Source: a virus (lineage: Duplodnaviria; Caudoviricetes). Taken from it: a stretch of 64,000 nucleotides of DNA. Each line of letters starts with the position of its first letter. Position 1 is the first letter of the stretch. The notes beneath the pieces are model-generated. The model saw only the letters and a program-made list of their open reading frames with translations, was not told where the DNA came from and ran no database searches. This document shows, one piece after another, positions 7,272-45,305 of this stretch. Position numbers and translations under genes: made by a program. Where the stretch lies: the IMG/VR virus record IMGVR_UViG_2708742532_000007, positions 1-64,000 of that record, one strand, 5' to 3'.

Positions 7272-8027
7272 TTATGCTTTAATGACTGAGCCAACCCAAA
7301 GAATTTTCAAGTCTTTCATCTTTTGAAGATATTGTTTAGCGGAAGCTTCGTTAGCATATGTGCCTGTTTGGAAGTAGAACTTACCTTTGTCTTCATTGAT
7401 TGTGATGTAATCAATGTTAGCAAGTTTGTTTTGCGCAACCTTAGCTTTGGCACTCTCAGCTTCTTTCTTCGTACTATACGTGCCTGACTGTATTCTGTAA
7501 GGTTCGTTTTTAGGTGGTGTATTTGTTCCGCCTTTGCCTTGAATCTTGTTAAGAGCCTTCTCGACACGATTTAAGAAGTCCTTCCAAGTTCCTCTGTCCA
7601 AGATTCTGTGTGGGCAATACTTACCTGACCAATCTTGATGTTTCTTAACAGAGTTTATTCCTAAGCCATGTCTATTCAATAGATAAGCTGTAAGCTCAAC
7701 TGCATTATTTTCAGCTTTATCATATCTATCTCCACCACTCTTAGAGTAGCAGATTTCTACACCGATAGATTTCATGTTGCCATTTCCTCTTCCATCACCA
7801 CAATGCCAAGCTGTTCGATTATCAGGTAATACTTGAATGATTTCCTTATCATCTACAGCATAGTGGAACGAAACTTGATTATTGTTGCTATTGTGATAAC
7901 GAGCTTCATTTAGGGCAGCCGCGTCATTAGCTGTGTTATGAATTGTGACATATTGAGGTGTCATGCTGTATGGTGCTTTAAGAGAATACTTAGCAGAGCT
8001 TGCTAACATTTGTTTAATTTCTAACAT
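7272..8027 (-). CDS. N-acetylmuramoyl-L-alanine amidase endolysin (XlyA/CwlA-like Amidase_2 plus SPOR-like repeats)
   Basis: TIHNTAND, VSFHYAVDD, AWHCGDG, SIGVEICYS, HQDWSGKYCPH; two Q(S/T)GTY repeats at the C-terminus. Confidence 0.93.
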   Translation of the reverse strand: MLEIKQMLASSAKYSLKAPYSMTPQYVTIHNTANDAAALNEARYHNSNNNQVSFHYAVDDKEIIQVLPDNRTAWHCGDGRGNGNMKSIGVEICYSKSGGDRYDKAENNAVELTAYLLNRHGLGINSVKKHQDWSGKYCPHRILDRGTWKDFLNRVEKALNKIQGKGGTNTPPKNEPYRIQSGTYSTKKEAESAKAKVAQNKLANIDYITINEDKGKFYFQTGTYANEASAKQYLQKMKDLKILWVGSVIKA

Positions 8028-8065
8028 ATCATATCACCTTCGATTAATTATTTTTTAATACAAAA

Positions 8066-8227
8066 AGAGGCTGGGACACAAGGATTTTAGCCAATGAAAA
8101 ACCCGAACTATATCACGAAACGCTCAGCCTGTGTTTCGTAATTGTTCGGGTTTTCTGTTTATATTCATTGCTAATTTAAAAATTATACGTTTTTCATAAA
8201 GTGCAAATTAGTTATGTCCCAGCCTCT
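8066..8227. mobile_element. MITE-like miniature element
   Basis: 13-bp perfect terminal inverted repeat AGAGGCTGGGACA (8066-8078) / TGTCCCAGCCTCT (8215-8227); internal hairpin AAAACCCGAAC..GTTCGGGTTTT; no ORF. Ends resemble IS1182-family ends. Confidence 0.7.
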
Positions 8228-8229
8228 CT

Positions 8230-8560
8230 CATTAGTGCTTCCTTGAATGTTTCTTCCATAGTTGCTAAGGCTTTATTAACAAGGTTTTCGAATTTTGTTT
8301 AGACACAAACATACCGAGTACTCCGTATTTGCTAACAATCATTTTGTAAACATAAGAAAGCTTTAAGTTTCCTGCTTTACTACCAAACTCTTTTTTGACA
8401 AGGTCAACAGCATGTAATAGCCACATAAGTATTAGCTTTTGACGCTTGTTAGAATGGGGAGTAAAGTACATTTTCTACAGCTTTAATAATTTGATATTGC
8501 TTAGGAGAACCAAGTTCCACTCGAACTTCATCAATTTTGTCAGGGTAGGCGAGATACTTC
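8230..8560 (-). pseudogene. Probable phage holin, frameshifted
   Basis: WLLHAVDLVKKEFGSKAGNLKLSYVY resembles small phage holins; the expected tail FENLVNKALATMEETFKEAL is in another frame; lies just upstream of the endolysin. Boundaries approximate. Confidence 0.6.
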
Positions 8561-8599
8561 ACTAGTAATAACATTTTACACATTTTTAATATCATTATA

Positions 8600-9046
8600 T
8601 TACTTTTGTTGCATTTCTTCAAAAGAGACTGTTTCTAAAATGTCACAGAAGCGATTGTAGCGCTCTGCTTCAATACCTGAAAACTCTTCATCAACTTCTA
8701 GGACAATACGTTGAATAGTTTTAATCATTTCAACTTTCTCATTTTTGACTTCGATAATAAATTCCTCATTCATTAACTTAGATACTTCCATGTTGAATGA
8801 AAGACTATCCTCAAGGATAACGAACTCTTGACCTTTTTCATCTTTATCACGAATAGGTTCATCATTTTCATCTTTCTTAGCGTAGTCTTGTAAAAGAATA
8901 TCTCGCTCAGTAGCGATTAATTGCAACTGTGCTTCTAAGATACCAATGAAGCGAGAACGCATACGAGAGTCCTTTCCTTTTAATGCAAGCTCGTATAGGA
9001 AATCTCCGAAAGCTTTTAGTTCATAGTTTTTAAATACTAAAATCAT
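8600..9046 (-). CDS. Phage protein, DUF1617-like
   Basis: LYELALKGKDSRMRSRF..YAKKDENDEP pattern; AAGGA RBS; typical position before the lysis genes. Confidence 0.7.
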   Translation of the reverse strand: MILVFKNYELKAFGDFLYELALKGKDSRMRSRFIGILEAQLQLIATERDILLQDYAKKDENDEPIRDKDEKGQEFVILEDSLSFNMEVSKLMNEEFIIEVKNEKVEMIKTIQRIVLEVDEEFSGIEAERYNRFCDILETVSFEEMQQK

Positions 9047-9068
9047 ATAAATTTATTCCTTTCCATTC

Positions 9069-9100
9069 AAAAATAGAGAGGAAATCAACTTGCCCCTCTA
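9069..9100 (-). terminator. Rho-independent terminator
   Basis: Minus strand TAGAGGGGCAAGTTGATTTCCTCTCTA followed by a T run. Confidence 0.6.
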
Positions 9101-9182: not shown

Positions 9183-11363
9183 TTAGATGATGAATGCATA
9201 AGCGCCACCTTTAGAACCTACTTGAATCACAGTGAAGATGTTGTCTACCATCAAGATACGAGGTTCAATGACAGTTAATACATCATGGTCAGCCCATGTT
9301 GGAATAGTAATTTCAGTTTCAACTTTGCGTCTACTTACAGTAATCTCAGTATCTACTTGAGATACTTTCTTAATATCAATAATAGTGTCAACTTGACTTA
9401 CAGATTTTGCATTAATTTCAGTGATAATATCACTAGTGTATTTAATGTAAATCTCTGTGTCTGTGTCTGAATCATTATAGCGTTGTACTGTGACAGATAC
9501 TTCAACAACAGGTTTAGATACGGTAATTTCAGTGTCAACATCATTCTTAATATTAGCTTCAATTTCAACCCAAATATCATTTCTATGTTTCACTTCAACC
9601 TCTACTTCAAGTTTTGGTCTTGAAACATAGACTACAGTGTAAAGACTACTATCATCAACAACTCTAGGTGTAATTTCAATTGGTATTTTATCTTTTGCTA
9701 CATGGATTTCTGTGTCAACAACAGAAGTCCACATTTCATTAATGTCAATTTCTGTATCTACTTGATTTTTGTCATGTGTAGGGACAGTAATTTCTACATT
9801 AATTGAAGGTTTTGTTACTGCAATGGTTGTGTCAATAATGCTTGTATCTCTTTTAGCGCATGCAATCTCAGCTAAAGCAAAAGGTCTGTTAACAGCAATT
9901 TCAGTATCCAATCGGTTTTCACGAGGTCTTCTAGCACTGATTTCAACTGGGATTTTATTTTCATCACGAATTGCTGAGATAATTTGAGTGGGTACATAAG
10001 GCTTGCTTACTGAAATTTCAACTAGGGCTTCAAAATCCAAAGGAACTTCTTTTCTGTGAACATAGATTTCAGTATCAATTTTTTCAAATCTATAAACTGA
10101 ATCAACAGTGATTTCGGTGTTTTTATCAGAGTTTCTTCTTCTGTAAGCAAAGATTTCAGTTAAGTGTTGGCTTCTCCCTTGAGAGAAAATTCTTGAATCA
10201 AAGTATTTAACAACTAATTCAGGAGGGAACATAGTCTCTCTAGTGTAGAACGTTGTTTGACCAAATTCAGTTTCATTGGATAGGCGAACAATAAAACCAT
10301 TATTAATCTTCTCTAGCGAAACCCAATTTTTAACAATTTCAAGGACGTCAAACTCAATGTATCCTTCTTCTGTATTTACCGTAAACTCATTAGAAATTAA
10401 GTCAATAGGGTTAGGTTTATTAAGGTTTGTGATGTTATACTCTTGCCATGCGCTATCTGCATTTAGAATCTCAAGTTTTATATTATTTGGTACTACACCT
10501 TTATAATATAATCGTAAGTAGGATTCTTTTAAAACATATGAGTGGTTAATCGAAGATAAATCAAATTGTACGAAAGAGCGCCAAATATCTTCTTGACTAC
10601 GACCAACAACCATAGATGAATTTTTACCATAGTTGATGGATTGGTAAGCTAATTCTTCTCTTGTGAAAGAGTCTTGAGTAGGATTGAATATATCTGTAAC
10701 AATTGGTGGTTGTTGAATCTCATAGACTGCCCACATTCTATTGTGAGGTGGTACTTCAATTTCAGCTTCTAAGAAATTGTACCCAATAGGTTGAATTTCT
10801 GTGTAGACATCTGAGTTACCACGATACATAACGTTTAGGTAAGTGTCTTTAATATTAGTACCCAAAGCACGAGAGATAAGCTCAGTTTCTATAGGGCTTT
10901 CTCCTAATGGTCTAGCTACAATTTCAACATCTTGCTCAGTTTTCCCTACCGCAATAAGCTTATATTTTGCTTTAAAGCTGTTATTAGGTGGTACTTCAAT
11001 CTCTGTTTCTAAGAAGTTGTGACCAATAGGTTGAATTTCTGTATAAACATCTGAGTTACCGCGATACATAACGTTTAGGTAAGTGTCTTTAGTGCTAAAA
11101 TCCAAGGCACGAGAGACAAGCTCAGTTTCAGTAAGACTTTCTCTTAGTGGTCTAGCTACAATTTCAACATCTTGTTCAATCTTTCCTACCGCAATAAGCT
11201 TGTATTTTGCATTAAAGCTGTTGTTAGGTGGTACTTCAATCTCTGTTAGAACTTCATTGTTAATACCAACCTCTATATACATATCAGAAGAGCCATCAAT
11301 TGATGATTCTCCTGACTCATTTCTTTGAGAGGAAATTTCTAATTCAAAATTTTTGTCCTCCAT
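9183..11363 (-). CDS. DNRLRE-domain tail-associated protein with acidic beta-rich repeats
   Basis: QDSFTRE..INYG..RSFVQFDLSSI..LRLYY..NNGFIV..PELVV; many DTEI-x-V repeats. Confidence 0.78.
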   Translation of the reverse strand: MEDKNFELEISSQRNESGESSIDGSSDMYIEVGINNEVLTEIEVPPNNSFNAKYKLIAVGKIEQDVEIVARPLRESLTETELVSRALDFSTKDTYLNVMYRGNSDVYTEIQPIGHNFLETEIEVPPNNSFKAKYKLIAVGKTEQDVEIVARPLGESPIETELISRALGTNIKDTYLNVMYRGNSDVYTEIQPIGYNFLEAEIEVPPHNRMWAVYEIQQPPIVTDIFNPTQDSFTREELAYQSINYGKNSSMVVGRSQEDIWRSFVQFDLSSINHSYVLKESYLRLYYKGVVPNNIKLEILNADSAWQEYNITNLNKPNPIDLISNEFTVNTEEGYIEFDVLEIVKNWVSLEKINNGFIVRLSNETEFGQTTFYTRETMFPPELVVKYFDSRIFSQGRSQHLTEIFAYRRRNSDKNTEITVDSVYRFEKIDTEIYVHRKEVPLDFEALVEISVSKPYVPTQIISAIRDENKIPVEISARRPRENRLDTEIAVNRPFALAEIACAKRDTSIIDTTIAVTKPSINVEITVPTHDKNQVDTEIDINEMWTSVVDTEIHVAKDKIPIEITPRVVDDSSLYTVVYVSRPKLEVEVEVKHRNDIWVEIEANIKNDVDTEITVSKPVVEVSVTVQRYNDSDTDTEIYIKYTSDIITEINAKSVSQVDTIIDIKKVSQVDTEITVSRRKVETEITIPTWADHDVLTVIEPRILMVDNIFTVIQVGSKGGAYAFII
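10746..11247. repeat. 240-bp in-frame tandem duplication (80 aa)
   Basis: AGGTGGTACTTCAAT recurs at 10746, 10986 and 11226 with near-identical intervening sequence. Confidence 0.92.
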
Positions 11364-11395
11364 ATATTCACTTCCTTATCACATTGTATTGTGAT

Positions 11396-13690
11396 TTAGG
11401 CTTTGTCTGCCCTCACGATAATATCAAAAGAACCGTTAGCGTCAGGTGTTGCGCCTAATTCAGATTTTAGTCTAACGAAGAATGGCATTTCTTCATCGTT
11501 TTGTAGTACACCACCCAATCTTAAATCAGGTTGAGGAATGAAAGGGGAAGAGCTTGTACTAAATTCACAAGTCATACCTGTAGGGAAATTCGCTGTGTTT
11601 GCATACAAATGAATATCTTTAACATCATATCCATATTGGTTTTTCAGTACAATCTCATGTTCAAGTGTAGTTTGACCTGCAATGATAATACCAAAATCAA
11701 GGTATTGGAGAACTTCACCAATTTCATTAGAAAAGTATTGACCATATATATCTTTGAACATAAGACCTGAATATGTTCCCATGAATTGTGTTGACCAATA
11801 ATCAGTAGTACCAAAAAAGTCTTGGAACTCTACTTTGAGCGTATTCCAGTCATCAATCTTAATATCTTTACTACCAATTGCTAGTTCGATATTCTGAGGT
11901 GATTCACCAAGTTTTGTAAAACTTCCATCAGAAGGGTAGTAGTTACCACCGTTTAATAGAACACGATATTGAACCCGAGTTAAATCATCATCACTTAGAA
12001 TACCTTTAAGGACATTACCATTAAATTCAATATTAATCTTTGCAGTAGTGTTTATGATATTTAAACTTGCGTCCTTAATAGTTGAAGTATCACGAGGTAA
12101 GTAGTCTTCAAAAGAAACTGTTTCAATAATTGATGTGATTGTGTCACGAGGATTATCTATTAAGAACATACCAATATTAATATATTCATCTTTCCATGTG
12201 CGCCACTGCTTATCGGTTAAATTGTTTAAGTCTTTATGCGTCATACCATTTTTCATGATTTCTTGCTCAGTAGAGGTATCAGCTACCACAAATTTACTTG
12301 ATTCCTTATCCCATACATACCATTTGTCAGGTGTGTGTCCTGCGACAAAGTAGCGAGCTTCGTCACGATATGATTGAGAAATGTCATTAACAAACACATC
12401 GTCTAAAGACCCATATATACGCTTAGGGTTCATCAATTTGATAAATTGAGGTTTTGGAACTGCTTTCATTTCAAGTACTCTTTGAGCAGTCTCAGGGGCT
12501 TCATCCGTCCATGTCACAACCTCAAAGTCACCTTCAAGTTCGTCAATAGGCGACCAATTAGCTTCTAAGATTAAATCAGCTTCAGTTACGGCTTCATCAT
12601 CTGTATAATAAAGAACCTCTACTTCATCACCAAATTCATCATAGATGTCAAATGGCTCAGTAGTTGTTGACACGATAATATCGTCTGTAGACTCTGTATA
12701 AGCCACTACTGTAGGGAGTTCACCAATATAGTCATAAACACTATAAGGGTCAACACCTGTCTCTACAATGATTTGTGAAGCGTCTGAGTCAGTATAGTAA
12801 ATTGCTTGTGGCTTATCACCAAGTAAATCCTGTACTGTGAAATCCTTTTTATTTAACACTACAGAAGTGAATTGCTTATCTTCAAAATCAGACCACATAG
12901 CAACTGATTTATCTCCTGATAGCTCTTTCCATTGAATTTCTGTGATATGGTCAAGATTGTTCATACCATATTTAATGAAGTTTTCTTCTGTTGGTGTAGT
13001 TGATTGCCATGAAGTACCATCATGGTATTTGTATTGTGAACCATGTTGTACTAGGTATTTATCTGGAATAGGGGATATTACTCTGTCGTAGATTTCGATA
13101 TGGTCTAACTCTCCAATAAATGCACTAGCATTAGTATCATGTAGTCCACCTATAAAAAGTGGTCTAACTGCACCATCATATGGTTTAACTGTCACAGCTT
13201 GATAAAGAGGAATTGACATGTCATCTATATATACTTTCACATCTGTTAAACTTCTTATTAGTAAAAAATTGTGCCACTTATTATCTTTGAAATTACCTAC
13301 AGTATCCGTTGTTAAGTAATTGAATTGATTAGGAGCATATGTTTCTCCTAGCTCTAATCTTCCCATATCATTAAATGCTATAGCCAAACCTTTATAGTCT
13401 TTATAAGAACCTGAGTTCGATAAAATATAACCATTGGTAAGGATGTTTCCTAATTTAAACTTGAACCTTAAAGAATGCACACCAACAGGCAATAAGTCAG
13501 TAAACGAAATTTTTTGACTACCATTAAAACTCATAGCACTTCCTATACCATTCCAACCTGTTACACGAGTAGGGGCATTAACTAACGTGCCTGCATGTCC
13601 ACCAATTGAATCCATTGCATTTCCGCTCGGTTCATCAAAACCAATAAAGGCTTTACCATATTTACTTAAATTGTCTTTACTATTAGCCAT
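11396..13690 (-). CDS. LamG-domain large tail/baseplate-associated protein
   Basis: N-terminal LamG (DNKWHN, VYIDD, FIGELDHIEIYD); acidic repeats; ATG at 13690 behind GGAGG. Confidence 0.85.
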   Translation of the reverse strand: MANSKDNLSKYGKAFIGFDEPSGNAMDSIGGHAGTLVNAPTRVTGWNGIGSAMSFNGSQKISFTDLLPVGVHSLRFKFKLGNILTNGYILSNSGSYKDYKGLAIAFNDMGRLELGETYAPNQFNYLTTDTVGNFKDNKWHNFLLIRSLTDVKVYIDDMSIPLYQAVTVKPYDGAVRPLFIGGLHDTNASAFIGELDHIEIYDRVISPIPDKYLVQHGSQYKYHDGTSWQSTTPTEENFIKYGMNNLDHITEIQWKELSGDKSVAMWSDFEDKQFTSVVLNKKDFTVQDLLGDKPQAIYYTDSDASQIIVETGVDPYSVYDYIGELPTVVAYTESTDDIIVSTTTEPFDIYDEFGDEVEVLYYTDDEAVTEADLILEANWSPIDELEGDFEVVTWTDEAPETAQRVLEMKAVPKPQFIKLMNPKRIYGSLDDVFVNDISQSYRDEARYFVAGHTPDKWYVWDKESSKFVVADTSTEQEIMKNGMTHKDLNNLTDKQWRTWKDEYINIGMFLIDNPRDTITSIIETVSFEDYLPRDTSTIKDASLNIINTTAKINIEFNGNVLKGILSDDDLTRVQYRVLLNGGNYYPSDGSFTKLGESPQNIELAIGSKDIKIDDWNTLKVEFQDFFGTTDYWSTQFMGTYSGLMFKDIYGQYFSNEIGEVLQYLDFGIIIAGQTTLEHEIVLKNQYGYDVKDIHLYANTANFPTGMTCEFSTSSSPFIPQPDLRLGGVLQNDEEMPFFVRLKSELGATPDANGSFDIIVRADKA

Positions 13691-13732
13691 TGTATTGACC
13701 TCCAATATTTTTTCATGTTAAAAGGACAACTA

Positions 13733-14689
13733 TTAATAGTTGTCCTCAATCATTGCTGTTTTAAAATCACCACCAATAGGAATAGTAAACATTCTACTTT
13801 TTCCTAGAGGTGTTTTGTTATTAGTCACAATCTCATATTCAGTTGTAGTTTTAGTGAAATCAATTGGTGTGCTATCCACTGCGGAATCAATCTCTCTAAC
13901 TATTCCACCTTGAGCTAACATCATATATTCTGCTGTGTTAGGAATCTCTTTTACACGAGTTGTGTTAGGGGATAAAACAAGGTTTTTACTGTCTGTTGTT
14001 TTAACTACTAAACGCTTTTGAGTGAAATCAGAAGGGGAGAGAGTTTTATTGTAGATTTGTAAATCATCAATTTGACCACCAAACCAATTTCTATAGCTCG
14101 TGAATTTCATTCCACCAACACTAAGGTTTTGACCTGTATAAGTGGCATTAGTTTCAGATTGTGACGCTCTAGCTGTTGCTACTAGTTCATCATCTATATA
14201 TAATTTTACAACATCTTCCATTCTTCCTGTCCATGAGAAAAGTATATTATGCCAATTTCCATCACACAAATTAATGCTAGTAGGAGTCGATAGAGAAAAA
14301 GAGGATACAAGAGGATTTGCAGATGTATACCAATTTACAGATATAACCCCTGAGTTTAAAACAAAAACATAGCCAAAACTATTAGATGATGATGTTGTAT
14401 AATTTTCCATAATAGATTGAGAAGTTGTTTTAAAATTTTCTGTTTTTATTTTAAAACTTATTGTCTTTTCTCCGAAAGGAAATATTTTATTATTGAACTC
14501 TAATCTATCACTAGTACCATTAAAGCTAATTGCAGAACCTTCACCATTCCAACCTTGAACTCTTGTTGCACCTGTAACTGTACCTGTATATCCATTGCCT
14601 AGCTTGTCGATAACATTTCCATTTACTTCATCAAAATCAAACCATGCGACACCATGATGTGCCATTAATTGTTCAGTCGTCGTTGCCAT
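13733..14689 (-). CDS. LamG tail-associated protein
   Basis: MATTTEQLMAHHG start; LamG motifs; paralog of 1347-2300. Confidence 0.85.
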   Translation of the reverse strand: MATTTEQLMAHHGVAWFDFDEVNGNVIDKLGNGYTGTVTGATRVQGWNGEGSAISFNGTSDRLEFNNKIFPFGEKTISFKIKTENFKTTSQSIMENYTTSSSNSFGYVFVLNSGVISVNWYTSANPLVSSFSLSTPTSINLCDGNWHNILFSWTGRMEDVVKLYIDDELVATARASQSETNATYTGQNLSVGGMKFTSYRNWFGGQIDDLQIYNKTLSPSDFTQKRLVVKTTDSKNLVLSPNTTRVKEIPNTAEYMMLAQGGIVREIDSAVDSTPIDFTKTTTEYEIVTNNKTPLGKSRMFTIPIGGDFKTAMIEDNY

Positions 14690-15935: not shown

Positions 15936-15985
15936 TTAATCATTCCTTTCTTATTGTATTAAGAAGTCAAAATAAAAACTCAGCT

Positions 15986-18621: not shown

Positions 18622-18640
18622 TTAATTTCACCTCATTTCT

Positions 18641-22725: not shown

Positions 22726-22757
22726 TGCATTGAAGTATTTTTCTTTTATAAATTACA

Positions 22758-37100: not shown

Positions 37101-38222
37101 GATAAGTTCTTCCTTAGCTTTTTGAGCTTCTTCATACCTAGCAGTAACAAATTGAATAGCAGCGCCTGCTATCGAACCAACAACACCAACAGCCCCTAAG
37201 GCATTAGATAACATATTAGCACCTTTGGAAAATTTAGATGTGCTATTCGATGCTGCATCCGATGCTTCTGCAATTGAAGAAATTGTTTGGCCAAACTCTA
37301 TAGCTTTAGCTGAATAGTCTGAGACTTGCTTTCCAAGACTGGTATCTTCAGACGTATTTTTTTTCAAGTCAGTCATTTTAGTATTAATATCTATAAGAAT
37401 AGAGCGGAGTTCTTTAAGTGCTCCAATAGTTTCATTAAAGTCAGTAGGAGGTGAGGGTATTTCTTTTACATGAGAAGGTGCTTCTTTAACAGTAGCTTGT
37501 ACTGTTTCTGAGCTAACGACAGGTGTAACATTTGCGACAACATCAATTTTGAACTTCGGTAAAGACATTTTATTAATCTGTTCTGAAATGCGTAGCTTCG
37601 TTTTTTCAACATCAAGCTCCATAACAGTTTTAAGACCTTGTAGTTCTTTCGTTTCAACAGTGTCTTTAATATGATTAAATGCGCCTTTAGCAAGTTCTAG
37701 TTTTACTTTTGCCTTAGCGAAAATAATTTTTTCTAGGCTTTTATTAATGTTTTCGACACTAGCCTTTTTTTCTAAAATAAGCTCAATTGGTTTTTGGTTT
37801 ACTTTAACAGTCTCTATAAATTCGTTAATATTTGCTTTAGATTGTTGATAGTTCACACCAAAAGAAATCTGAAGTGGTTGTACCTCAATTTTCTTTAAAG
37901 CACTCTTGACTGTAGTTTGTGTTGCTTGTTCATTAACATAGAAAATCAAAGATTTCTTAGCTTGTTTTTGGTTGTTTAGGAAAGTTTGAATGTTTGCTTT
38001 ACTTTGTCCAACTGCAACATCAAAACTAAGGTTAATGTTTTTATTTTTATGCTTGTCTAAAAATGTTTTGATGTTTTTATTAGATGCACCAACATTTACA
38101 CCAAAAGTTAGTTTTTTATCTTTCATTTCTTTAGATAAGAATGTATCAATCCTTTTTTTGGATTTATCTTTATCAATATCTAACGAAACCAAAAACTTTA
38201 CTTCGTTATTTGTAATACTCAA
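31188..38222 (-). CDS. Tape measure protein with M23 peptidase and phage tail lysozyme domains (CwlP/YomI-like)
   Basis: ~2345 aa, mostly coiled coil; HRGTDID..YAHM..HLHYE (M23); AGIMGNIQQES..FGIAQW (tail lysozyme); TTG start at 38222 behind AAGGAG. Confidence 0.9.
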   Translation of the reverse strand: MSITNNEVKFLVSLDIDKDKSKKRIDTFLSKEMKDKKLTFGVNVGASNKNIKTFLDKHKNKNINLSFDVAVGQSKANIQTFLNNQKQAKKSLIFYVNEQATQTTVKSALKKIEVQPLQISFGVNYQQSKANINEFIETVKVNQKPIELILEKKASVENINKSLEKIIFAKAKVKLELAKGAFNHIKDTVETKELQGLKTVMELDVEKTKLRISEQINKMSLPKFKIDVVANVTPVVSSETVQATVKEAPSHVKEIPSPPTDFNETIGALKELRSILIDINTKMTDLKKNTSEDTSLGKQVSDYSAKAIEFGQTISSIAEASDAASNSTSKFSKGANMLSNALGAVGVVGSIAGAAIQFVTARYEEAQKAKEELIAKNEQEVKSFADNEKAIDSLLSKYSTLSAESKGQQLDSQKYKELLDTQNELGKLLPNLVKGEDEYGNKILVSSMQAETKVDILKQELEVQKLLNAEKGKKEQEEAEETARDTIKGANRDTELNLESAYAYVHKMELVSHNYDELKDKLTKGIGINEDLWSGNSLKSIDDVALAIERVKEALAKKTELNLGEGAIFDLESSQKHLEQIYFELLQSQKDVMSGLNVLKTGYTKDLEDTIKLTGDFSTEGQEVFEDVANSVINLAETESDLDDFNEAITMALGKKDADIEKNFTELADTISEMKKSGITDVDEFEKKYGESFNTIKGSILKALKDSGIKEGTALYETYENTLDNFIESKLNEEKAIKEIMETQGKGRKEAEEYFKTHNEGAEGLADVIDPLVEYAQKIKSFSSLGEEMLGVTGKQISETNELTGIYKYLSSVTNKTTDEQAKLEDAMKKLKALYPHLVKNGEIRIESIEAENKMNKILTESYKNLTDGKYNSEEEQTYYSAVGAKARVENLQVELEALEKAKNFHEKNALLMSGFSGVAGLAMKATAIAYQSRYDTTKAKLDQELAKLNTGINSLSTSNDKYSKSSDKASESTDNYSKSSDKASESTKDAKKELSELEKITNKYTLTLDKLNTSLKEVESRQKKYPTYSKQYRQALADENKLLQQQNDIYNQKLKDLNGVTNSSSTTVSGTGGTVRPKGWSGQITSQYGTRSDNHRGTDIDGKIGDVLESNINGKVLKAGDATKIGEDKSYGNLVIIQDANNNKHYYAHMNDVSVVKGQQITAGTKLGTIGNTGTVRSGSGGDGSHLHYEIRNSSNQTINPSSYIASARQGVTSGGSSKANGNSTQATVWNFFKSKGLSDSAVAGIMGNIQQESSFSSTAGKNAQGSAFGIAQWRGSRLSELNSFAKSKGTSANDLGTQLDFMWKELQGKEKQALHSLNRTLTATEHASNFNTLYERSGEKAGSKGHNNRVNYANNAYNTYAGSGATAGSGSGDDDYARVHSESQSMIQAIMANNDKISENNFNTIKSQMDAYKRNRDMEDNAIAKQAELQKNMLEYSKAYEDSVNKQYTAEQRKLKSYQAEYAYIQKMYDAGGLDLNQQDQLLDRRYELQQVMLQSQNQIKAYYNEIISSKLSKFDYHMEKHQKVLEWEEVKIQSLDNTSERYRKTLEIMANTRKSQLTTAKQEIDYINQMLSKGNLTIEMYEELTSRAGELKKELVELNEAFHQLNYEKVQAVATSHDIKIDDIDFELSYNQSLRGLLDEGSGDYLKTLESDMELYQKKLIEIAQKEIDMKAEMQGLDLGSQKLQDLEEQLEELALSYLDVQNAVKDTQDAIDNFAKAVDDKVEEMRNKLAEDIINALKDAYREAKDIQLSAIDKLIEAEEERHEKVMKQYDKELEAYTKIIDAKRREIQDADRDRTYGNKLDELNTQKQELQNKLNLLSNVNTYEGIKEKEELQKQIAEIEKQINEEKYQYEKGLREQQLDDMLDDKTEHIEDLKDKEDEYSKEVLDSLNKQKKYWEKHYEDLLNDEAKFNELREEMAQGHYGKVQELYNKYIGELKASLPDLEDRFDGTWEAVGTSIRENVINEMERLLKEIEKVEEEIEKVQNLAKNVTGEHDFSTDANQTVENAGKTDPLTEADMKVILAKFMNEKIAGSLDPKKDAVRIKNIKDKADKLAKEGRAEGSKYNANQSLGSIFDSMSSSQISELGSYFQNNSDASGFMTQEYLDYIKEFGQTASKGKVMTHGDKQVMLAKYMKEYLMPLANTKAKKDALNGTATKIADSGRMHTSLISPTVSYEQSLSKLSGKQQAELGQYMLDNSTVVSFDDLKNKLINYADNLRRNASNDFVGADTGGMTTGFGSTGGTDGKGGRLALLHQNELVSNPLDTERMLRISSIMDNVMRTINGVIALPASPKVNSVSTPTETEKSTVVNINIDKFNGTKNDIDYLAKQIQNRLLREKGKR
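35259..35336. repeat. Tandem duplication in the tape measure gene (36-bp unit, 42-bp period)
   Basis: TGTTGATTCACTGGCTTTATCACTAGATTTAGAGTA at 35259 and 35301 (YSKSSDKASEST twice). Confidence 0.9.
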
Positions 38223-38328
38223 AATGTTTAGCTCCTTCTTTATTCGTCGTTGTGCAACTATTTTGTTGCAGTCTAAAACCCTCAAGTAAACCCCTAACCG
38301 AAATAGGGTAGGGATGTAATTCAAAGTA

Positions 38329-39288
38329 TTAGAAAATATCATCTAGTTCATCTGAATCATCTTTTATAACATAGATAGATGTTGTTTCAGTAGAGATGTG
38401 ATTTAAAAGCACCTTAGCTTTATTAATGTCTTTTCCTTCTTCAACTACTAAGTGTGTCGCTCTTGAGCGTCTAAGTGCGTGGGGTGTTAGTTTATATCCT
38501 AAGATATAATTGAACTTATTAGTAAACCACGCATTGAAAGCGTCAGGACTAAGTTCTTTTGTTTCACCATTCTTAAACTTACGAACGAAAACATATGGGT
38601 TATCGTCTTCACCACGAATTTCAAGCCATTTTAAAATAGCTTGTCTAGCTTCTTCGCTATACATCAGTTTGATCGGTTTACCAACCTTACCTTTACCTTT
38701 ACCACGAACATGAGGTGTTGCGTAGAAGTCTTTGTTCTTTACCTTAGGCATATCAAAGAACTCTTTTTTCATCTGAGCAATTTCTGCTCTACGTGCGCCT
38801 GTGCTGTAGCTTAATAAGAAGTAAGCAATCATTTGATACTCACCTTCTTTTTCAAGCTCTGCAATAAGCCTGTCAATATCTTCTTTCGCTACAATATTCT
38901 TTTCTCTCACAAGCTGTTTAGGAGGGGAGGGAATAGCCTTGTTGAAGATATTTCTAAATTCAGGGTAGTCTTCGCCATAGTAAAGTTCAATATAGTTACA
39001 AAGTGAACTTACTGCTGAGCGTTTGAACTTAACAGCATTAGAAGATAACTCTAATGACATCAAGTGATTCTGATAATCTAAAGCGTGTCTTGCTTTTAAT
39101 TTGTGGATAGGGCTGTTGTCAAATTCATCTTTAACATATCTCACAAAGATTTTTAATGCGCTTGTATATTGTTTAAGTGTTTTATCTGATAGATGTTGTT
39201 GTTTCAAGAACTTATTAACAATCTTTCTATTCCACTCATTACATTCAAGCCATTCTTCATTAGTTACAGGAGGTATTTTAATTGCCAT
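38329..39288 (-). CDS. Tyrosine recombinase, XerC/D-like (YomM-like position)
   Basis: TGARRAEI, HALRRSRAT, LLNHISTETTSIY: catalytic R, H-x-x-R, H and Y all present. Confidence 0.92.
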   Translation of the reverse strand: MAIKIPPVTNEEWLECNEWNRKIVNKFLKQQHLSDKTLKQYTSALKIFVRYVKDEFDNSPIHKLKARHALDYQNHLMSLELSSNAVKFKRSAVSSLCNYIELYYGEDYPEFRNIFNKAIPSPPKQLVREKNIVAKEDIDRLIAELEKEGEYQMIAYFLLSYSTGARRAEIAQMKKEFFDMPKVKNKDFYATPHVRGKGKGKVGKPIKLMYSEEARQAILKWLEIRGEDDNPYVFVRKFKNGETKELSPDAFNAWFTNKFNYILGYKLTPHALRRSRATHLVVEEGKDINKAKVLLNHISTETTSIYVIKDDSDELDDIF

Positions 39289-39301
39289 TTTCTCACCTCC
39301 T

Positions 39302-39760
39302 TCAATTGTTGATACCTTGCTCTAAAGCTTTTTTAAGGTGTTTGTTATAAGTAGTTTTATCTAGCTTTTCTGCTGTTGCTTTTGCAAATGGTCTAGGTTC
39401 AGCCCATTTTTCATCAGGGTTATACCAACCATTCTCAGAATTGCTAGAGGTGTGCTGTACATCACTACCATTTTCAATTAGCTCTGAAAAAAAATAGCCA
39501 TCCATTGAATCACTAGTGAGGTTTTCAAAGTCAGAAGCGAAGGTATTTCCATTAAGCTTATGTTTTGTAAATACCATATTTCTAGCGTCAGAAAGACTGC
39601 CAGCATCATAACTACGCTCATAATAGTCATAGACTTCTGTGTAAACAGAATCTACCATTGCGTGTCTAAACACGTTTAGAACTTGTGGGCTTTTAATGGT
39701 GTCTTTCACTTTACCTTGAACATATTTTTCTAAATCCTTGATATTACTGAATGTAGGCAA
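39302..39760 (-). CDS. Tail completion protein, HK97 gp10-like
   Basis: VYDYYER..PRPFAKATAEKL motif and position. Confidence 0.6.
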   Translation of the reverse strand: MPTFSNIKDLEKYVQGKVKDTIKSPQVLNVFRHAMVDSVYTEVYDYYERSYDAGSLSDARNMVFTKHKLNGNTFASDFENLTSDSMDGYFFSELIENGSDVQHTSSNSENGWYNPDEKWAEPRPFAKATAEKLDKTTYNKHLKKALEQGINN

Positions 39761-39775
39761 TTACATCACCCTAAC

Positions 39776-40258
39776 TTATTTAAAGTCTCCTTTTGTTTCT
39801 AATGCTTCATTAATTGCTTCTTGAGCCAATACAGCTTTTTCAGCAACCTTGTTTACACGTTCGATTACTTCTCCAACTTGATTTTGGTCAAAAATTTCAT
39901 CGAAGAATAGGTCAAATAAACCAATCTTCATTAATGCTTCCATTGCCATAATCTTTTCTTCGAACGTGTCACCGATTTCATTTTTAAAGTGAGAGAAGTA
40001 TTTAATAATAAGCAATAGCTCATATTTAATTAGTTGTTCTTCACTTTCAAAGAAACTGTATTCTTTTTCGATTGCGTACTGCATATCGTTGAATAGCTCA
40101 AGAGTTAGCTTCTCAACTTGAGTGCGGTCAAAGTATTCGTTATACTTAACTGTTTTTTTAGTCTCAGGGTCAACTACGAACGTAGACATTACATCTACTT
40201 TCTTAGATTCTGCTAGAATATCTTTTAATTTAATTGGTGACTGTCTTTTTGCTGTCAT
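39776..40258 (-). CDS. Probable tail assembly chaperone
   Basis: Acidic helical protein directly after the major tail gene; strong AAAGGAG RBS. Confidence 0.6.
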   Translation of the reverse strand: MTAKRQSPIKLKDILAESKKVDVMSTFVVDPETKKTVKYNEYFDRTQVEKLTLELFNDMQYAIEKEYSFFESEEQLIKYELLLIIKYFSHFKNEIGDTFEEKIMAMEALMKIGLFDLFFDEIFDQNQVGEVIERVNKVAEKAVLAQEAINEALETKGDFK

Positions 40259-40295
40259 GGTAAAATCTCCTTTTTATCGGTTAATAGTTTAGAAA

Positions 40296-40325
40296 TAAAA
40301 AGGGGAGAGGTTGACCTCTCGCCCT
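40296..40325 (-). terminator. Rho-independent terminator after the major tail gene
   Basis: Minus strand AGGGCGAGAGGTCAACCTCTCCCCT followed by TTTT. Confidence 0.75.
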
Positions 40326-40352
40326 GGTTTTTATAACATATTATTATTTTTC

Positions 40353-41120
40353 TTATTTACGTGGTTTAAGCAGGATTGAACCCATTTCATCAGCACCCTT
40401 AGGGTTAATTACTGCGAAATTGATTTCAGGTGTGTAAACATTGCCGTTCTCTAATGAAATGTCAAACTCACCACTAGGGATTGTTTCAGGGAAATCAAAT
40501 AGAATATCTGCTTTTACTTTTGCAGTGTCTAAGTCATAAGCAATTGTTTTCATTTCTACTCTGTATTTTCCTGCGAACTTAGTAGAATCAATAGAAATCC
40601 TTTGACCTTCTACTTCCTCTTGATAGAATACATGTAACTCTTGTCCTGCTTTGAAAGTGCCTTTAGCTCCTGCTAATTCAACAGCTTTCTTAGTTTTGTC
40701 TGTTAAAGAAACAACAACATTTAAAGTCTCTTGCGTACCATCAGGTAGTTCAACTTGTGCTTTAGTTCCTACGATAGCACCATCAGGTAATACGATTTCG
40801 TTTGTAGAAGTGGCGCTGTCTACAACAACAATACCTTTAGTATTTGCTGTGAATTGACCTTTACCGTTTTCTTCTACAGCTACACCTTGAGTCATTGCCC
40901 AATACTCAATATCAGCTACTGCTGAACGCATTGCTAAATCAATTGCTTTGTCAGTACGAATTTTGTAAAGTTTTTTGTTACCGATACCGCCTTTAAGGTC
41001 TTCTTCTGAGATAGAGCCTTTGATACCTGCTAACTGCGCTTCCGCGTTTAGTACCACTTTACCTGTTTCTAGGTCAGTGATTGTTACATCTGCTGTGTCT
41101 TGAATTACGATTTTACCCAT
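40353..41120 (-). CDS. Major tail tube protein (SPbeta YomU-like)
   Basis: VIQDTADV..AEAQ..ISEEDLKGGIGNK..AMTQG..PSGEFDISLENG; followed by a terminator. Confidence 0.78.
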   Translation of the reverse strand: MGKIVIQDTADVTITDLETGKVVLNAEAQLAGIKGSISEEDLKGGIGNKKLYKIRTDKAIDLAMRSAVADIEYWAMTQGVAVEENGKGQFTANTKGIVVVDSATSTNEIVLPDGAIVGTKAQVELPDGTQETLNVVVSLTDKTKKAVELAGAKGTFKAGQELHVFYQEEVEGQRISIDSTKFAGKYRVEMKTIAYDLDTAKVKADILFDFPETIPSGEFDISLENGNVYTPEINFAVINPKGADEMGSILLKPRK

Positions 41121-41157
41121 TGAGTAAATTCCTCCATTTATTTATATTGTGTATGAG

Positions 41158-41913
41158 CTACATTTGAAGTAGCCCACCAAATTTCTTGTCAAATTCATTC
41201 TTAGATATTACATCATCTTCTAATTTGAATAAGTCAATATGCTTATTCCAAGATTCAATGTTTACCTTCTCTGCAACTGTGGCAAATAGGGTAGATGTCT
41301 GATAGTTATAGATAGCTCCAACACGAGCATAAATAGCGTAAACTTGAAAAATGTTCATTCTACATACATCATCAAAACTGTTACTTGTACTTGCGACAAT
41401 AGAAGTAACAATATCAACAAATGTCTGCTCCTGTGAGGATTGTTGTTTAAATCTTCTAGAGCGTTCAATAGCTCTTTGAATTTCTTCGTTAGGAGAAACC
41501 TTGTCTTCTGTGATTACATTCATATCCATAATTAATCTTCTGACAAAGTGAAAACTCTCACTAGATTCAAAGATTATTTCGTATTGTATTTCTTCATTTC
41601 CATCAAACACTAATTGAAAAATCTTCAAATAAGCATTTAACAACTGTCGTGTACTAAGAACAATCTCTAATAGGTCTGCTTCCTTGATTTCCGTTAAGGC
41701 TTTTAGACTTGATTCATCTGCCATAGCTTCTTTTAGTTGATTTCTATAGTTGTAGTAGATGTGTAGAGAGTTTTGAGCGATAAGATTTATCTCAGCAGCA
41801 TGACTAAGATATTCTCGATAGGTTAAAAATCTGATAGAACCAAATTTCGTATCTACTGTTTCACCGAAAATAAATAAATTCTTATCGTAGTCTAGATTTT
41901 CAATGTGGTGCAT
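41158..41913 (-). CDS. SPbeta YomV-like tail-region protein
   Basis: Synteny; STLFATVAEKVNIESWNKHIDL motif. Confidence 0.6.
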   Translation of the reverse strand: MHHIENLDYDKNLFIFGETVDTKFGSIRFLTYREYLSHAAEINLIAQNSLHIYYNYRNQLKEAMADESSLKALTEIKEADLLEIVLSTRQLLNAYLKIFQLVFDGNEEIQYEIIFESSESFHFVRRLIMDMNVITEDKVSPNEEIQRAIERSRRFKQQSSQEQTFVDIVTSIVASTSNSFDDVCRMNIFQVYAIYARVGAIYNYQTSTLFATVAEKVNIESWNKHIDLFKLEDDVISKNEFDKKFGGLLQM

Positions 41914-42434
41914 TATTTCTTACTCACATTCATTGTGTATTGATGTAAGAAGCGTCTATAATGTGTTGGGGCTTCACGAGGGTTGCCTGATTTGTATTCG
42001 AGCTTACCAAAGCCTGCAATACGCTCTAACGCTATCAGCTCATTAATCCTGTCAGATATTCGTGATATTCTTAAATCTCTGTCAAATGATTCATGAATAA
42101 AAATGTCAATGTTAACCTCTTGTTGTGCTACTAGATAGCTTTCAATTACAGGTCTACGTCTACCTTCGTAAATGTAAATCTTGCATAGTTTATTTTCTAT
42201 TAGGTCAGAGGTTTTTTCGCCTAAAACAACTCTCTCGTCAACTAGTTTCCAATAATCATCACTTTCAATGTTTACTAAGTTTGGTAACTTAGGGTCAAGT
42301 GGGTCGGGATGATAGTTTTCTTGAGTGTCATATCCTTTAGGCTCATATTTTAATAATCTCATTAGTTCTTCATCAGTGATTAAAATTTGATATATGTTTG
42401 AGAAGAACTCTACTGTTGAACTTTGTTTAATCAT
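41913..42434 (-). CDS. Tail terminator-like protein (YomW-like)
   Basis: DEELMRLLKY..DPLDP..QEVNIDIFIH..ISDRINEL; synteny. Confidence 0.62.
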   Translation of the reverse strand: MIKQSSTVEFFSNIYQILITDEELMRLLKYEPKGYDTQENYHPDPLDPKLPNLVNIESDDYWKLVDERVVLGEKTSDLIENKLCKIYIYEGRRRPVIESYLVAQQEVNIDIFIHESFDRDLRISRISDRINELIALERIAGFGKLEYKSGNPREAPTHYRRFLHQYTMNVSKK

Positions 42435-43038
42435 GTTATTGGAATCCTTTACAGTTGGATTTCAATGTAACCAATACCGTTCATTACATGTTCCATTGAT
42501 ACGGTAACTTGATACTGATTCTGATATATGGTTACAGTTGAGTTAATTTCAGGAATGTGATTTGCTAAGGTAGTTTTAAAATAACTGAACCATTAGGAAA
42601 GGGAATAGAGAGTTATCATCCTGAGAGTAAATCTTGTCAGTCATTATACAAGGCTTTTTAATATTTATTTTTTCTGTTTTATAGATTGGTCTAACCAACA
42701 GTGTTAGTAACCACCTTGATTTTTCTTTCGTTTTAATAGGGAACTCAGTGTTATAAAGTTCACCGATTAACTGAGGATATATTTCATCATCAACCATGTT
42801 TGTAACAAGGTAAGTGAAGTCTCTCCAAATCAGGCAAAAACAAGAATTTACGCCCATAAAAAGATCTAATGTCATTTACGATACTAGGGATTGGTAATGT
42901 TTCCTGCATATCAATAAAAACATAAGATAGGGAAGGAGAATCTAAGATATAGTTCACCATTTGTCTTTTTGTGGAATTTTACAAGTCTTTAATTGTGTTA
43001 TCATTAGCTCGAACCCTTTTTCTACAAGCGCTAAACAT
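42431..43038 (-). pseudogene. Head-closure/connector-like gene (YomX-like), disrupted
   Basis: Several frameshifts and stops; terminal GIGYIEIQL*RIPIT* overlaps the next ATG; ORF 42576-42875 is a fragment. Confidence 0.6.
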
Positions 43039-43042
43039 TACA

Positions 43043-43351
43043 TCATTCCTGTTCTAGTTTTTGTATTTGTTTTTCAATCGTGTCAATAGTTCCAAACACT
43101 TTGCTTTTAATGAATGGTTTATTGTCCTCTTTAATACACTCTTTAAGCAATCCATTAAGAATAGCATGAGTTTGAACAATCCATGCGCCATCATATTCAG
43201 GTGTGATTTCTTTTACGTTATGAACCTCAAAAATAACTGAATTAATGTGGTCAGGTAGCGTAGAAACACCTTCCTCATATAGTGGCAAAATCTTAAAGAT
43301 AGAGCCTTTTAATGAGTGCATATAGTTTAAATAATCTAATTTTGCAATCAT
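43043..43351 (-). CDS. Phage hypothetical protein (YomY-like)
   Basis: LKGSIFKILPLYEE..IKSKVFGTI; position in the head-tail joining block. Confidence 0.6.
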   Translation of the reverse strand: MIAKLDYLNYMHSLKGSIFKILPLYEEGVSTLPDHINSVIFEVHNVKEITPEYDGAWIVQTHAILNGLLKECIKEDNKPFIKSKVFGTIDTIEKQIQKLEQE

Positions 43352-43611
43352 TGTGTGTTATCCTTTGATATTAAATAATTCTTTTACATAAGCAACGCTA
43401 TATGAGCCCTTAAGAAGCGGGGTGAGTTGATTTCATTAAAATTAGCTCAGCTAAAGTAATGTATTGAACAACGCTAAATTTAGCCCATTCAAACTTTTCG
43501 CTAGTGCGACTGGGAAATTAAAACTAAATTGGTGTTGCTAATCGAAAAACGATTAAATCATTACGATTAATTTCTAGTCGTTTTTTTAGATCTAGCAGTA
43601 GTTTTTGTAAC

Positions 43612-43857
43612 TTACGCTTCTTTTACAGCTTTCGCATATGAACCAACGATTTCAGCTATATCATTAGAAGCTTCTTTGAAGCCTACTTCATAACCTTCGT
43701 CATATGCTTCTTCAATAGCTGTTTCTAACGTGCTAGCAATTAACTGTGATACGGCAATATGAAAGGCTTGCTTAGGTTCAGTGCCGATTTCAATTAAATT
43801 TTCGAAAGCATCATATGTTGTACATACTTGACATTTTGTTTCTTCCATTGTTTTCAT
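43612..43857 (-). CDS. Hypothetical protein
   Basis: 81-aa ORF with AAGGAG RBS, coupled to the upstream gene. Confidence 0.65.
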   Translation of the reverse strand: MKTMEETKCQVCTTYDAFENLIEIGTEPKQAFHIAVSQLIASTLETAIEEAYDEGYEVGFKEASNDIAEIVGSYAKAVKEA

Positions 43858-43862
43858 GCTCC

Positions 43863-45047
43863 TTAATACTTGATATAGAATGTAGCTTTACGACCATTTC
43901 TATCAAGCCATAGTAGTTTTTGGTGTGCCTTAGAAAGTAGGCGACTGTCTTTTGAATAGTTGTTCGTTCCCGCGAAACCACCATTTACTATTAGGTCTAC
44001 GCCATGAATCTCATTCTCAAAATTCTTGTGAATATGACCTGCGAAAATAGCAGTAGGGAACTTTTGAATCATCATTGTTAGGTCTTGAATCACTTTGCTA
44101 TAGTTGTCTAAGTGACCATGAACACCGAAGTAAGTTCTACCTAAGATTGTTGCTACTATGATTTCGCTGTCATACTTGTTGTCCATCATAGTAACATTCG
44201 GCAAGTTTTCTAAACGAGCTCCCATATACCATGTGACAAAATCATGGAAACTCTCAGTCTTAATTTCCTCCTCTTTGCGAGAAGAAATTCTGTCATGATT
44301 ACCTTTGACACTGTAAACTTTAACTTTTTCAAAGTAGTTTGCTAGAATAGCGACAAGTCTAGCCAAAGCTTCAGCTACTGACTTAGTTTGCTCAACTGCG
44401 GTTTCTGTTTCACCAATCTTAGTAAGGCGGTGTAGATTGCCCTCAATTAAATCACCTAATTGCATGATATGAAGCTCTCTAGCTCCTGTTAACTCTTGAT
44501 AAGCTATTATTTCATTAATTGTTTGTTCAATGCGTTCATAGAACACTTCTTCATTAAATGTGTTCCAATGGTTATCTGTTACCATTCCTTTGTGAAGGTC
44601 TGATAACATTAAAGTAAGAGATGTGTCACCATTATATTTAACATCTGCTTTCTTGTAGTTAAGTGGTCTAGCGTTGTTGATTTCATCTTTAATAGAGTCA
44701 ATCAGCTTTTTAAGCAAGTTATCCAACCTTGCTTCGTGGCGTAAGAATTGTTTGTACTCACGCTTTTGGTCTTGAACTTGCATTTTAGCAATCTCAAGCT
44801 CTTTAATTTTGTCGTTTAATTCTTCTAGTTCTCCAGAGGTATTAGCGTTCTGCTTAATAGCGTAATCTCTACCTTGTTTGAAAGCTTTATACCATTTGCG
44901 ATAATATGATTCACCGAAATTAAGTTTAAGCTCTTTGTTAAGAAGTTCACAAATACCTTCCCATGTAAGACCAAGAATCTTTTTGTTCTCACAGATTCGA
45001 TACTTGTATTCTTCAACGATTTCATTAGGAAGTTGTTTAGTGTTCAT
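43863..45047 (-). CDS. Metallophosphoesterase with N-terminal HTH/coiled coil (YonJ-like)
   Basis: SDLH, GDLIEG, GNHD, HGH and GHIH calcineurin-like motifs. Confidence 0.85.
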   Translation of the reverse strand: MNTKQLPNEIVEEYKYRICENKKILGLTWEGICELLNKELKLNFGESYYRKWYKAFKQGRDYAIKQNANTSGELEELNDKIKELEIAKMQVQDQKREYKQFLRHEARLDNLLKKLIDSIKDEINNARPLNYKKADVKYNGDTSLTLMLSDLHKGMVTDNHWNTFNEEVFYERIEQTINEIIAYQELTGARELHIMQLGDLIEGNLHRLTKIGETETAVEQTKSVAEALARLVAILANYFEKVKVYSVKGNHDRISSRKEEEIKTESFHDFVTWYMGARLENLPNVTMMDNKYDSEIIVATILGRTYFGVHGHLDNYSKVIQDLTMMIQKFPTAIFAGHIHKNFENEIHGVDLIVNGGFAGTNNYSKDSRLLSKAHQKLLWLDRNGRKATFYIKY

Positions 45048-45050
45048 CTA

Positions 45051-45305
45051 TTAATCTTCCTTAAATAAGTCTTCTTCTTGTTCTGCATCTGTTTCAGAAG
45101 ATACATTGAACTCGTTAATAATTGCGATTGAATCTTCTTCTTTGATAGAAAGAGTGATGTTTTTACCATTAAATTCTTCCAGTAATTTATTTAGGCTATA
45201 CTTGAAATCGCCATCTTTAACAGATTCAGTTACGATTAACTCTCCTAAAGTCCAATCAATATCAAGTTTACCTTTTAGTTGTATTGAATTAGTGCGCTTT
45301 GCCAT
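45051..45305 (-). CDS. YonK-like protein
   Basis: MAKRTNSIQLKGKLD..YSLNKLLEEFNGKNITLSIKEE; adjacent to the YonJ-like gene. Confidence 0.75.
   Translation of the reverse strand: MAKRTNSIQLKGKLDIDWTLGELIVTESVKDGDFKYSLNKLLEEFNGKNITLSIKEEDSIAIINEFNVSSETDAEQEEDLFKED

Follow-up and report, generated by a model that had tools for sequence, protein, structure and literature searches.

A head-less SPbeta-type prophage element in a Lysinibacillus-like genome as a candidate source of flexible, tailocin-like tails

The phages of the SPbeta group (the Bacillus phages SPbeta itself, as SPBc2, and SPR, with Psychrobacillus phage Perkons and Brevibacillus phage Sundance) share a late-gene order that runs from YonJ to YomY, YomX, YomW, YomV and YomU, followed by YomM, YomI, YomH and YomG, as well as a divergent early region. 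The same order and the same type of early region are carried by the prophage element described here, whose tail tube protein is homologous to the solved SPR tube. The element was studied in a 64,000-nucleotide stretch (IMG/VR record IMGVR_UViG_2708742532_000007, hereafter the window), which corresponds to bases 3-64002 of contig C53 (235 kb) in the draft genome of a Lysinibacillus-like bacterium (G000; 57 contigs, 5.16 Mb). Unlike the SPbeta group, the element is devoid of terminase, portal, scaffold, capsid, YonA- and YomZ-like genes; a holin and a serine integrase were not found in it, and its fibre genes are massively multiplied.

The F-type tailocins (F-pyocins, monocin and rhizoviticin) provide the second comparison, as they resemble the element in a head-less non-contractile tail set at a fixed site in related species and in a variable receptor-binding region. 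Loci of this type are small, bring their own lysis genes and are not known to include replication modules, whereas the element exceeds 85 kb, retains a full early region without a recognisable holin and stems from a phage type of much greater size. The PBSX-type defective phages of Bacillus subtilis are contractile, keep their heads and are lytic on induction; the element shares with PBSX the status of a domesticated spore-former prophage fixed in the chromosome, but its head genes are missing. Capsid-forming phage-inducible chromosomal islands are small elements that keep capsids and borrow tails. Such islands are mobile and code for just half of a virion, an arrangement of which the element may be the reverse. 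An F-type tailocin derived from SPbeta was not encountered in a literature search that reached titles and the openings of abstracts.

Judged by its gene content, the element descends from a temperate siphophage of the SPbeta family and is head-less and fixed in the chromosome. The affiliation, already proposed in the original prediction (made from the window sequence), is upheld by a YomU-type tube and by the late-gene synteny of YonJ, YomW, YomV, YomU, YomM, YomI, YomH and YomG. The tube protein is 30.8% identical to SPBc2 yomU, and its structural model (pLDDT only 62) gave a Foldseek match at E 1.1e-12; all 34 phage records that the protein matches are SPbeta-like, with genomes of 124-147 kb. 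By the tail-associated protein Tal, Perkons (47%) and Sundance (43%) come nearest among 99 matching records. The late operon occupies the minus strand from 48603 to the contig end at base 1, and the early region starts on the plus strand at 48839. Comparisons were made gene by gene with G048, a sister species whose host DNA is 95-96% identical to that of G000 over one 12-kb chromosomal stretch, and around the junction with X5, the sequencing run of a third isolate from a separate study. Three head-bearing relatives (G192, G243 and G259) were picked by the tube protein, which matched 7 of 370 family genomes (G000 counted), and a scan with one genome per species yielded seven loci, the head-less one being a Lysinibacillus zambalensis record counted as the same genome as G048.

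The loss of the head module is evident from the interval that should contain it. In SPBc2, as the original prediction stated, the genes between yonJ and yomY include the terminase and portal (yonI, H, G, F [terminase], E [portal], D, C, B, A and yomZ); Perkons has ORF210-204 (open reading frames, ORFs) at this position, and G192, G243 and G259 have 9.3-11.8 kb with ORF210-like and terminase-like genes. A full head module in constant order is present in six of the seven loci of the species scan, and the module occupies this position in seven head-bearing relatives as well as in Perkons and SPBc2. The element has only 511 bp between the gene of a 102-amino-acid (aa) neck-region protein and the YonJ-like exonuclease gene; the gap of about 260 bp reported earlier holds for the distance to an intervening 81-aa ORF, not to the YonJ-like gene. 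The equivalents of yonG-yonA, a hallmark of SPbeta, are therefore missing from their place.

Head genes were also sought in the whole assembly, all contigs except C45 (4878 bases) being taken in. In G000, tblastn with the head-module ORFs of the relatives (10 from G192, 9 from G243 and 10 from G259) gave no match, and eight hidden Markov models (HMMs) of head proteins built from the relatives gave no significant one in the six-frame translation (best E 0.033 and 0.057); an accessory ORF upstream of the relatives' head module matched only other G000 contigs by tblastn. All three control HMMs found their expected places in the same six-frame search (E 3e-18, 9.3e-14 and 8.4e-50), and the head HMMs recovered the module in four loci left out of HMM building (L066-L069). 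The PHROG capsid, portal and terminase families taken from Perkons had no match in G000 either; these negatives were discarded in favour of the lineage-specific HMMs because the capsid family phrog_12438 missed all three head-bearing relatives. The expectation of a head-less locus with no head gene elsewhere in the assembly is thus borne out by HMM and tblastn searches alike, and the element shares with F-type tailocins the lack of head and packaging genes. An assembly artefact, or head genes lying in sequence outside the searched contigs, could be suspected in a draft of 57 contigs with C45 unsearched and the fibre region broken up. It is nevertheless extremely unlikely: C45 is shorter than the 9.3-11.8-kb module and cannot hold it, and three independent assemblies each show an unbroken junction. 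The only full-length match to the junction is in G048 (95% over 3201 bases; 3 of 49 genus genomes matched, G000 included), and one 75-kb contig of X5 bridges 36000-49000 with the junction. The head-less locus was found in only 2 of the 49 genus genomes and in one sequencing run, and the comparison across relatives proposed earlier thereby reveals the same junction in the sister species and a third isolate, at a site that is fixed in G000 and G048.

The scar itself is partly foreign. Positions 43611-43862 are 94% identical to C30:21942-22191, part of an ordinary siphophage-type prophage (25 kb assembled), and the 81-aa ORF has no homologue in the relatives, being foreign to the SPbeta-like lineage here; its synonymous divergence (dS) between G000 and G048 is 0.26, above that of its neighbours. 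Next to the 102-aa gene, which is intact and 99% identical in G048, lies a YomX-like gene that had been called a decayed connector-like gene and is indeed a true pseudogene, broken into three pieces in different frames (HMM E 9.3e-14, 2.9e-8 and 8.7e-6). By alignment, G000 and G048 have a TAA stop in common, and differ in the pseudogene by 42 substitutions over 585 aligned bases (7.2%) and by indels of 1, 26, 4, 1 and 16 bp; five indels that are not multiples of three thus fall within 0.63 kb, vs neighbours 0.7-2.3% divergent without a frame break, and X5 has an extra deletion of 245 bp. The pseudogene serves as an internal neutral yardstick for the neighbouring genes. The structural model of an intact YomX-like homologue (pLDDT 82) has 23 BFVD matches at E <= 0.001, and six of its 11 top matches bear the name “Head closure knob” (E 3.5e-9 to 1e-6); against PDB it matches solved neck and stopper proteins weakly, none at E <= 0.001. 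Since the model matches head-closure proteins, the only decayed late gene, split fibre paralogues apart, is predicted to be a head-side, head-closure gene. Among other family searches, phrog_24208 had no match, phrog_5251 only one at E 0.21 on the pseudogene, and Pfam none for the YomX-like protein. Elsewhere in G000, an intact YomX-like head-closure homologue (C56:94410-95054, HMM E 2.3e-13) belongs to yet another prophage.

The tail set appears complete as far as its members can be named, with tube, tape measure, Dit, Tal and fibres. The earlier description of an intact tail holds for the tube, tape measure, Dit, Tal and most fibres; the chaperones are assigned by position and some fibres are split. 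The tape measure of G048 is likewise open (2386 aa, 77% identical). Selection was estimated from ORF pairs of G000 and G048 as the ratio of non-synonymous to synonymous divergence (dN/dS, pooled NG86), 66 pairs passing a coverage filter of 80%; those below it were mostly swapped fibres along with a few short ORFs. Pooled in five classes, 65 pairs gave low ratios throughout: late-proximal (15 genes; dN/dS 0.185, dS 0.057), distal tail (9 genes; 0.206 and 0.67), lysis (2 genes; 0.151 and 0.64), early (24 genes; 0.150 and 0.097) and host flank (15 genes; 0.148 and 0.16), with one fibre pair (34.95% identical) standing outside them. None of the 65 pairs has a frame break, and the seven proximal tail genes range from 0.08 to 0.49 (YomW-like 0.121, YomV-like 0.080). 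The dN/dS analysis suggested earlier accordingly speaks against neutral decay of the tail genes (0.19-0.21). The element has the fixed locus, conserved in relatives under purifying selection, that characterises F-type tailocins, and not the widespread pseudogenes and neutral evolution of a decaying cryptic prophage. On the strength of these sequence comparisons, the tail genes, the endolysin and the early region are under purifying selection, and the head-less state is judged to be old and maintained.

A head-less SPbeta-type element that makes flexible tails resembling F-type tailocins is the best single mechanism for this set of features, and is advanced tentatively, at somewhat under an even chance. 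One event would have deleted about 10 kb, the entire set of head and packaging genes that corresponds to yonI-yomZ, leaving a 0.5-kb scar that includes DNA related to a different prophage of the same genome. Decay of the head-closure gene would have followed, and purifying selection would have preserved the other genes as at least three lineages diverged. The sigma-like regulator would switch on the late operon upon induction, and the YomU-type tube would polymerise around the tape measure (2384 aa) upon a tip of Dit, Tal and PAAR proteins with many receptor-binding paralogues. The product would be a long flexible tail of roughly 350 nm (at about 0.15 nm per tape-measure residue), capped by YomV/YomW-type proteins, which would bind its target, digest the wall by its M23 and lysozyme domains and then damage the membrane. 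Release would need a holin from elsewhere or another form of cell lysis.

Several observations weigh against tail production as the retained function, and most of them bear on a second explanation, namely a defective prophage that yields no useful particle and is kept for host-beneficial cargo or early genes, or as a recombination partner. Firstly, the proposed lysis-plus-tail locus has an intact endolysin without a recognisable holin, so that the lysis cassette of F-type tailocins (holin plus endolysin) is incomplete. Two or three membrane proteins adjoin the endolysin in Perkons and G243; the corresponding spacer has only two short ORFs, of which the 68-aa one aligns with positions 33-80 of the 121-position phrog_36029. 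No ORF with a membrane segment adjoins the amidase in G000 or G048, nor does a non-nested small one exist in the late operon; the G243 and Perkons holins have no homologue in G000 or on contig C20 of G048, the holin family PF09682 has no match at the locus, and the few small membrane-segment ORFs elsewhere in the assembled element are not holin-like. Secondly, the claim that decay spares the tail is contradicted by the 24 early genes, which are just as intact; genes of replication, recombination and nucleotide metabolism are conserved as well as those of the tail, which implies that selection is not tail-specific, and we know of no tailocin locus in which replication genes are conserved alongside the tail. 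Thirdly, the late-proximal ratio rests on only 149 nucleotide differences, no tail terminator was identified by Pfam or PDB searches, and one fibre paralogue of the first module is split (21373-22036).

The distal tail poses a further difficulty. Between G000 and G048 divergence steps up at about 38.3 kb, where a recombinase that is 99% identical adjoins the 77% identical tape measure, and dS is 0.64-0.67 in 7272-38342 against 0.06-0.10 in the rest of the element. The step marks a recombination boundary inside the tail operon, and the roughly tenfold higher dS points to an import of the distal tail and lysis genes, by recombination, from a different phage lineage; the constraint on an imported block may date from a complete phage instead of from the head-less state. 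A defective prophage would be in keeping with this import, with the missing holin, with the evenly conserved early genes, with the decaying fibre paralogues downstream of the amidase and with the failure to find a Perkons-type serine integrase on C53, C1 or C36-C39. In Perkons the serine integrase is reported to be the active integrase (PMC13245101). Nevertheless, the seven proximal tail genes show constraint and unbroken frames, and the one decayed late gene is the head-side gene. In its recombination-partner variant, incoming SPbeta-like phages would keep overwriting the element with working alleles; such overwriting should also mend the head deletion and the pseudogene, both of which persist in three lineages. 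The defective prophage is regarded as somewhat unlikely, yet as the strongest alternative. Of the original tailocin interpretation, the SPbeta-like, head-less, fixed element with a constrained tail stands, while the tail-specific sparing and the lysis-plus-tail locus do not.

The element-wide purifying selection, replication genes included, could also be explained by a helper-dependent element that replicates, encodes its own tails and spreads with the capsids and packaging of an intact SPbeta-like phage. The dS of the element (0.06-0.10) below that of the host flank (0.16), the use of the same site by other large insertions and the presence in G048 of a complete SPbeta-like prophage besides the element (on a different contig, its terminase, portal and capsid genes included) are consistent with this. 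Such helper dependence is nonetheless very unlikely: the head HMMs detected no helper of this kind in G000, the candidate in G048 is remote (YomW-like protein 27% identical; 102-aa neck protein and tube without a match at E 1e-3), no serine integrase was found and the other prophages of G000 are of ordinary size. A bolder conception is that of a living “half phage”, a self-replicating, tail-encoding, head-less entity of about 130 kb that acts either as a tailocin factory or as a capsid borrower; this is regarded as distinctly unlikely. As a factory it may amplify and make multi-specific flexible tailocins that draw on a library of at least two dozen receptor-binding paralogues; as a capsid borrower it may, by analogy, mirror the capsid-forming satellites.

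The element extends well past the interval 7272-45305 first assigned to it, from beyond window base 1 to about C53:84.6 kb. About 85 kb of it is on C53, to which another 42 kb of fibre modules on four small contigs can probably be added, and the G000 and G048 elements are collinear from C53:22114 to C53:84.5 kb and on into the host flank. The left flank is a yfkB-like gene (96% identical in G048, where it is also at a contig end) and the right flank a HAD hydrolase gene, beyond which lie an opine-synthesis operon and rplY-like genes; both flanks are common to the two genomes. In 17 other genomes of the genus no more than 3 kb lies between these flanks; the distance is 155 kb in G001 and 132 kb in G022. 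The respective insertions (G001:C1 and G022:C31) lie between the yfkB-like and HAD genes, and that of G001 carries an SPbeta-like head module, which suggests that the site is a hotspot for such phages. Further along C53 lies a repeat of about 125 bp (C53:119230-119358) that recurs dozens of times, at 83-90% identity, throughout the genomes of G048 and G044.

The fibre expansion, located in window 1-22036, on C36-C39 and at the right end of C1, comprises 49 ORF fragments by jackhmmer (16 on C53, 32 on C36-C39 and 1 on C27). C36-C39 are four low-GC contigs with almost only phrog_17517-type fibre genes, and one paralogue has 24 matches in G000 vs 1-5 in the 16 other matching genomes of 48 in the genus. 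The first module holds six intact paralogues (13733-21205), a 769-aa laminin-G fibre and a 726-aa CBM96 protein, and in the second module three of six positions are split. All contig breaks in the fibre region fall within copies of the 769-aa fibre gene, and contig-end overlaps gave no link among the fibre contigs. A unit at the ends of C1, C37 and C39, also seen in the window at 7209-7442 and 11396-11701, has a shared left edge, a terminator hairpin, the last 57 amidase codons and the last 100 fibre codons; the window copy lacks one arm of the hairpin through a 12-bp gap, and the unit suggests tandem duplication after an internal deletion.

Of the remaining features (Table 1), the sigma-factor-like gene has homologues (44-46% identical) at the same position in G192, G243 and G259, and the YonJ-like exonuclease is 54-59% identical to theirs, SPBc2 yonJ being annotated as an exonuclease. 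The chaperone-position ORFs have homologues in G243 and no informative family match; the location of the YomM-like recombinase is shared with SPBc2, Perkons and Sundance, and Dit and the two baseplate proteins are 48-60% identical to Perkons ORF188-190. Pfam returned no match for the 102-, 251- and 255-aa proteins and only sub-threshold, chance-level matches for the 173-, 160- and 152-aa ones, and a PDB sequence search nothing for the 102-, 173- and 251-aa proteins. The tRNAs had been described as decayed, which was not substantiated: two exceed the Rfam gathering score (65.5 and 48.7 bits), of which ARAGORN calls only one. Products of the early region include helicase, primase, Pol III alpha, RecJ-, Sak4- and RuvC-like proteins, ribonucleotide reductase and thymidylate synthase; a DndB-like and integrase-like pair (52556-54895) has its equivalent in Perkons ORF65-66. 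The element has no YonO polymerase, which is not a defect because none of the three head-bearing relatives has one. A YonO-like single-subunit RNA polymerase is encoded elsewhere in G000 (C57:90489-93272; 927-aa ORF, phrog_8308 E 8.5e-125), just upstream of an apparently ordinary terminase/portal/protease/capsid module (by ORF sizes) of another prophage, and the SPbeta-lineage head HMMs do not match that module. A megablast of 24 kb against a phage collection returned no match, and a promoter/terminator scan found 50 promoter-like sites vs 41.5 expected, which is chance level.

Table 1. Features of the element, by position in the window
Feature	Position	Strand	Evidence and remarks
Early region, divergent	48839-64000, on to C53:84.6 kb	+	Helicase/exonuclease V, DndB-like and integrase, replication initiator
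Sigma-factor-like protein, 170 aa, first late-operon gene	48091-48603	-	phrog_5767 E 4.9e-16
DNA-binding protein, 127 aa	47187-47570	-	phrog_379 E 9.1e-11
tRNA-Arg (TCT)	46597-46670	-	ARAGORN; Rfam 65.5 bits
Second tRNA-like gene	45602-45672	-	Rfam RF00005 48.7 bits (gathering score 29); no ARAGORN call
YonJ-like exonuclease, 394 aa, last gene before deletion	43863-45047	-	phrog_284 E 2.3e-64; phrog_704
Deletion scar in place of head module	43352-43862	-	One 81-aa ORF at 43612-43857
Neck-region protein at YomY position, 102 aa	43043-43351	-	Intact; phrog_5523 E 6.3e-15; HMM control E 3e-18
YomX-like head-closure (stopper) pseudogene, predicted	42431-43038	-	Three pieces, different frames
YomW-like protein, 173 aa	41913-42434	-	Intact; phrog_9587 E 1.5e-25; Atlas YomW clusters 0.97
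YomV-like protein, 251 aa	41158-41913	-	Intact; phrog_4051; Atlas YomV clusters 0.97
Tail tube protein, YomU/SPR homologue	40353-41120	-	phmmer vs solved SPR tube E 3.5e-43
Two tail-chaperone-position ORFs, 160 and 152 aa	39776-40258, 39302-39760	-	By position only
YomM-like tyrosine recombinase within tail operon	38329-39288	-	phrog_1 E 1.6e-41
Tape measure (YomI homologue), 2384 aa	31188-38342	-	phrog_4211 E 5.9e-82; Peptidase_M23, Phage_lysozyme2 (tail lysozyme)
Dit (YomH-like) and two baseplate proteins	29283-31187 (Dit 30588-31187)	-	phrog_33, phrog_20658, phrog_20852
Tal (YomG-like), 1337 aa	25260-29273	-	phrog_6211 E 3.7e-208; YOMG_N, Prophage_tail
PAAR-motif protein and three conserved tail-tip proteins	22111-25248	-	48-59% identical to Perkons
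First fibre module	9183-22036	-	phrog_17517 and others; Pfam; jackhmmer
Spacer where relatives have holins	8028-8599	-	Only 57-aa and 68-aa ORFs, without membrane segment
N-acetylmuramoyl-L-alanine amidase endolysin	7272-8027	-	Intact; phrog_3088 E 5.8e-82; dN/dS 0.146
Second fibre module, partly decayed, running off contig end	1-7025	-	About 85% identical to 12387-20028

If its tails are made and active, the element would represent an F-type tailocin from the SPbeta family, with a tail several times longer than the known examples and an unusually large receptor-binding repertoire. Whatever its function, the locus constitutes a natural experiment in which the head module is gone, the head-closure gene is decaying and about 65 other genes have been held through speciation. 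Therefore, it makes testable the questions of which phage genes a host or an element keeps after the loss of the capsid and why replication genes persist.

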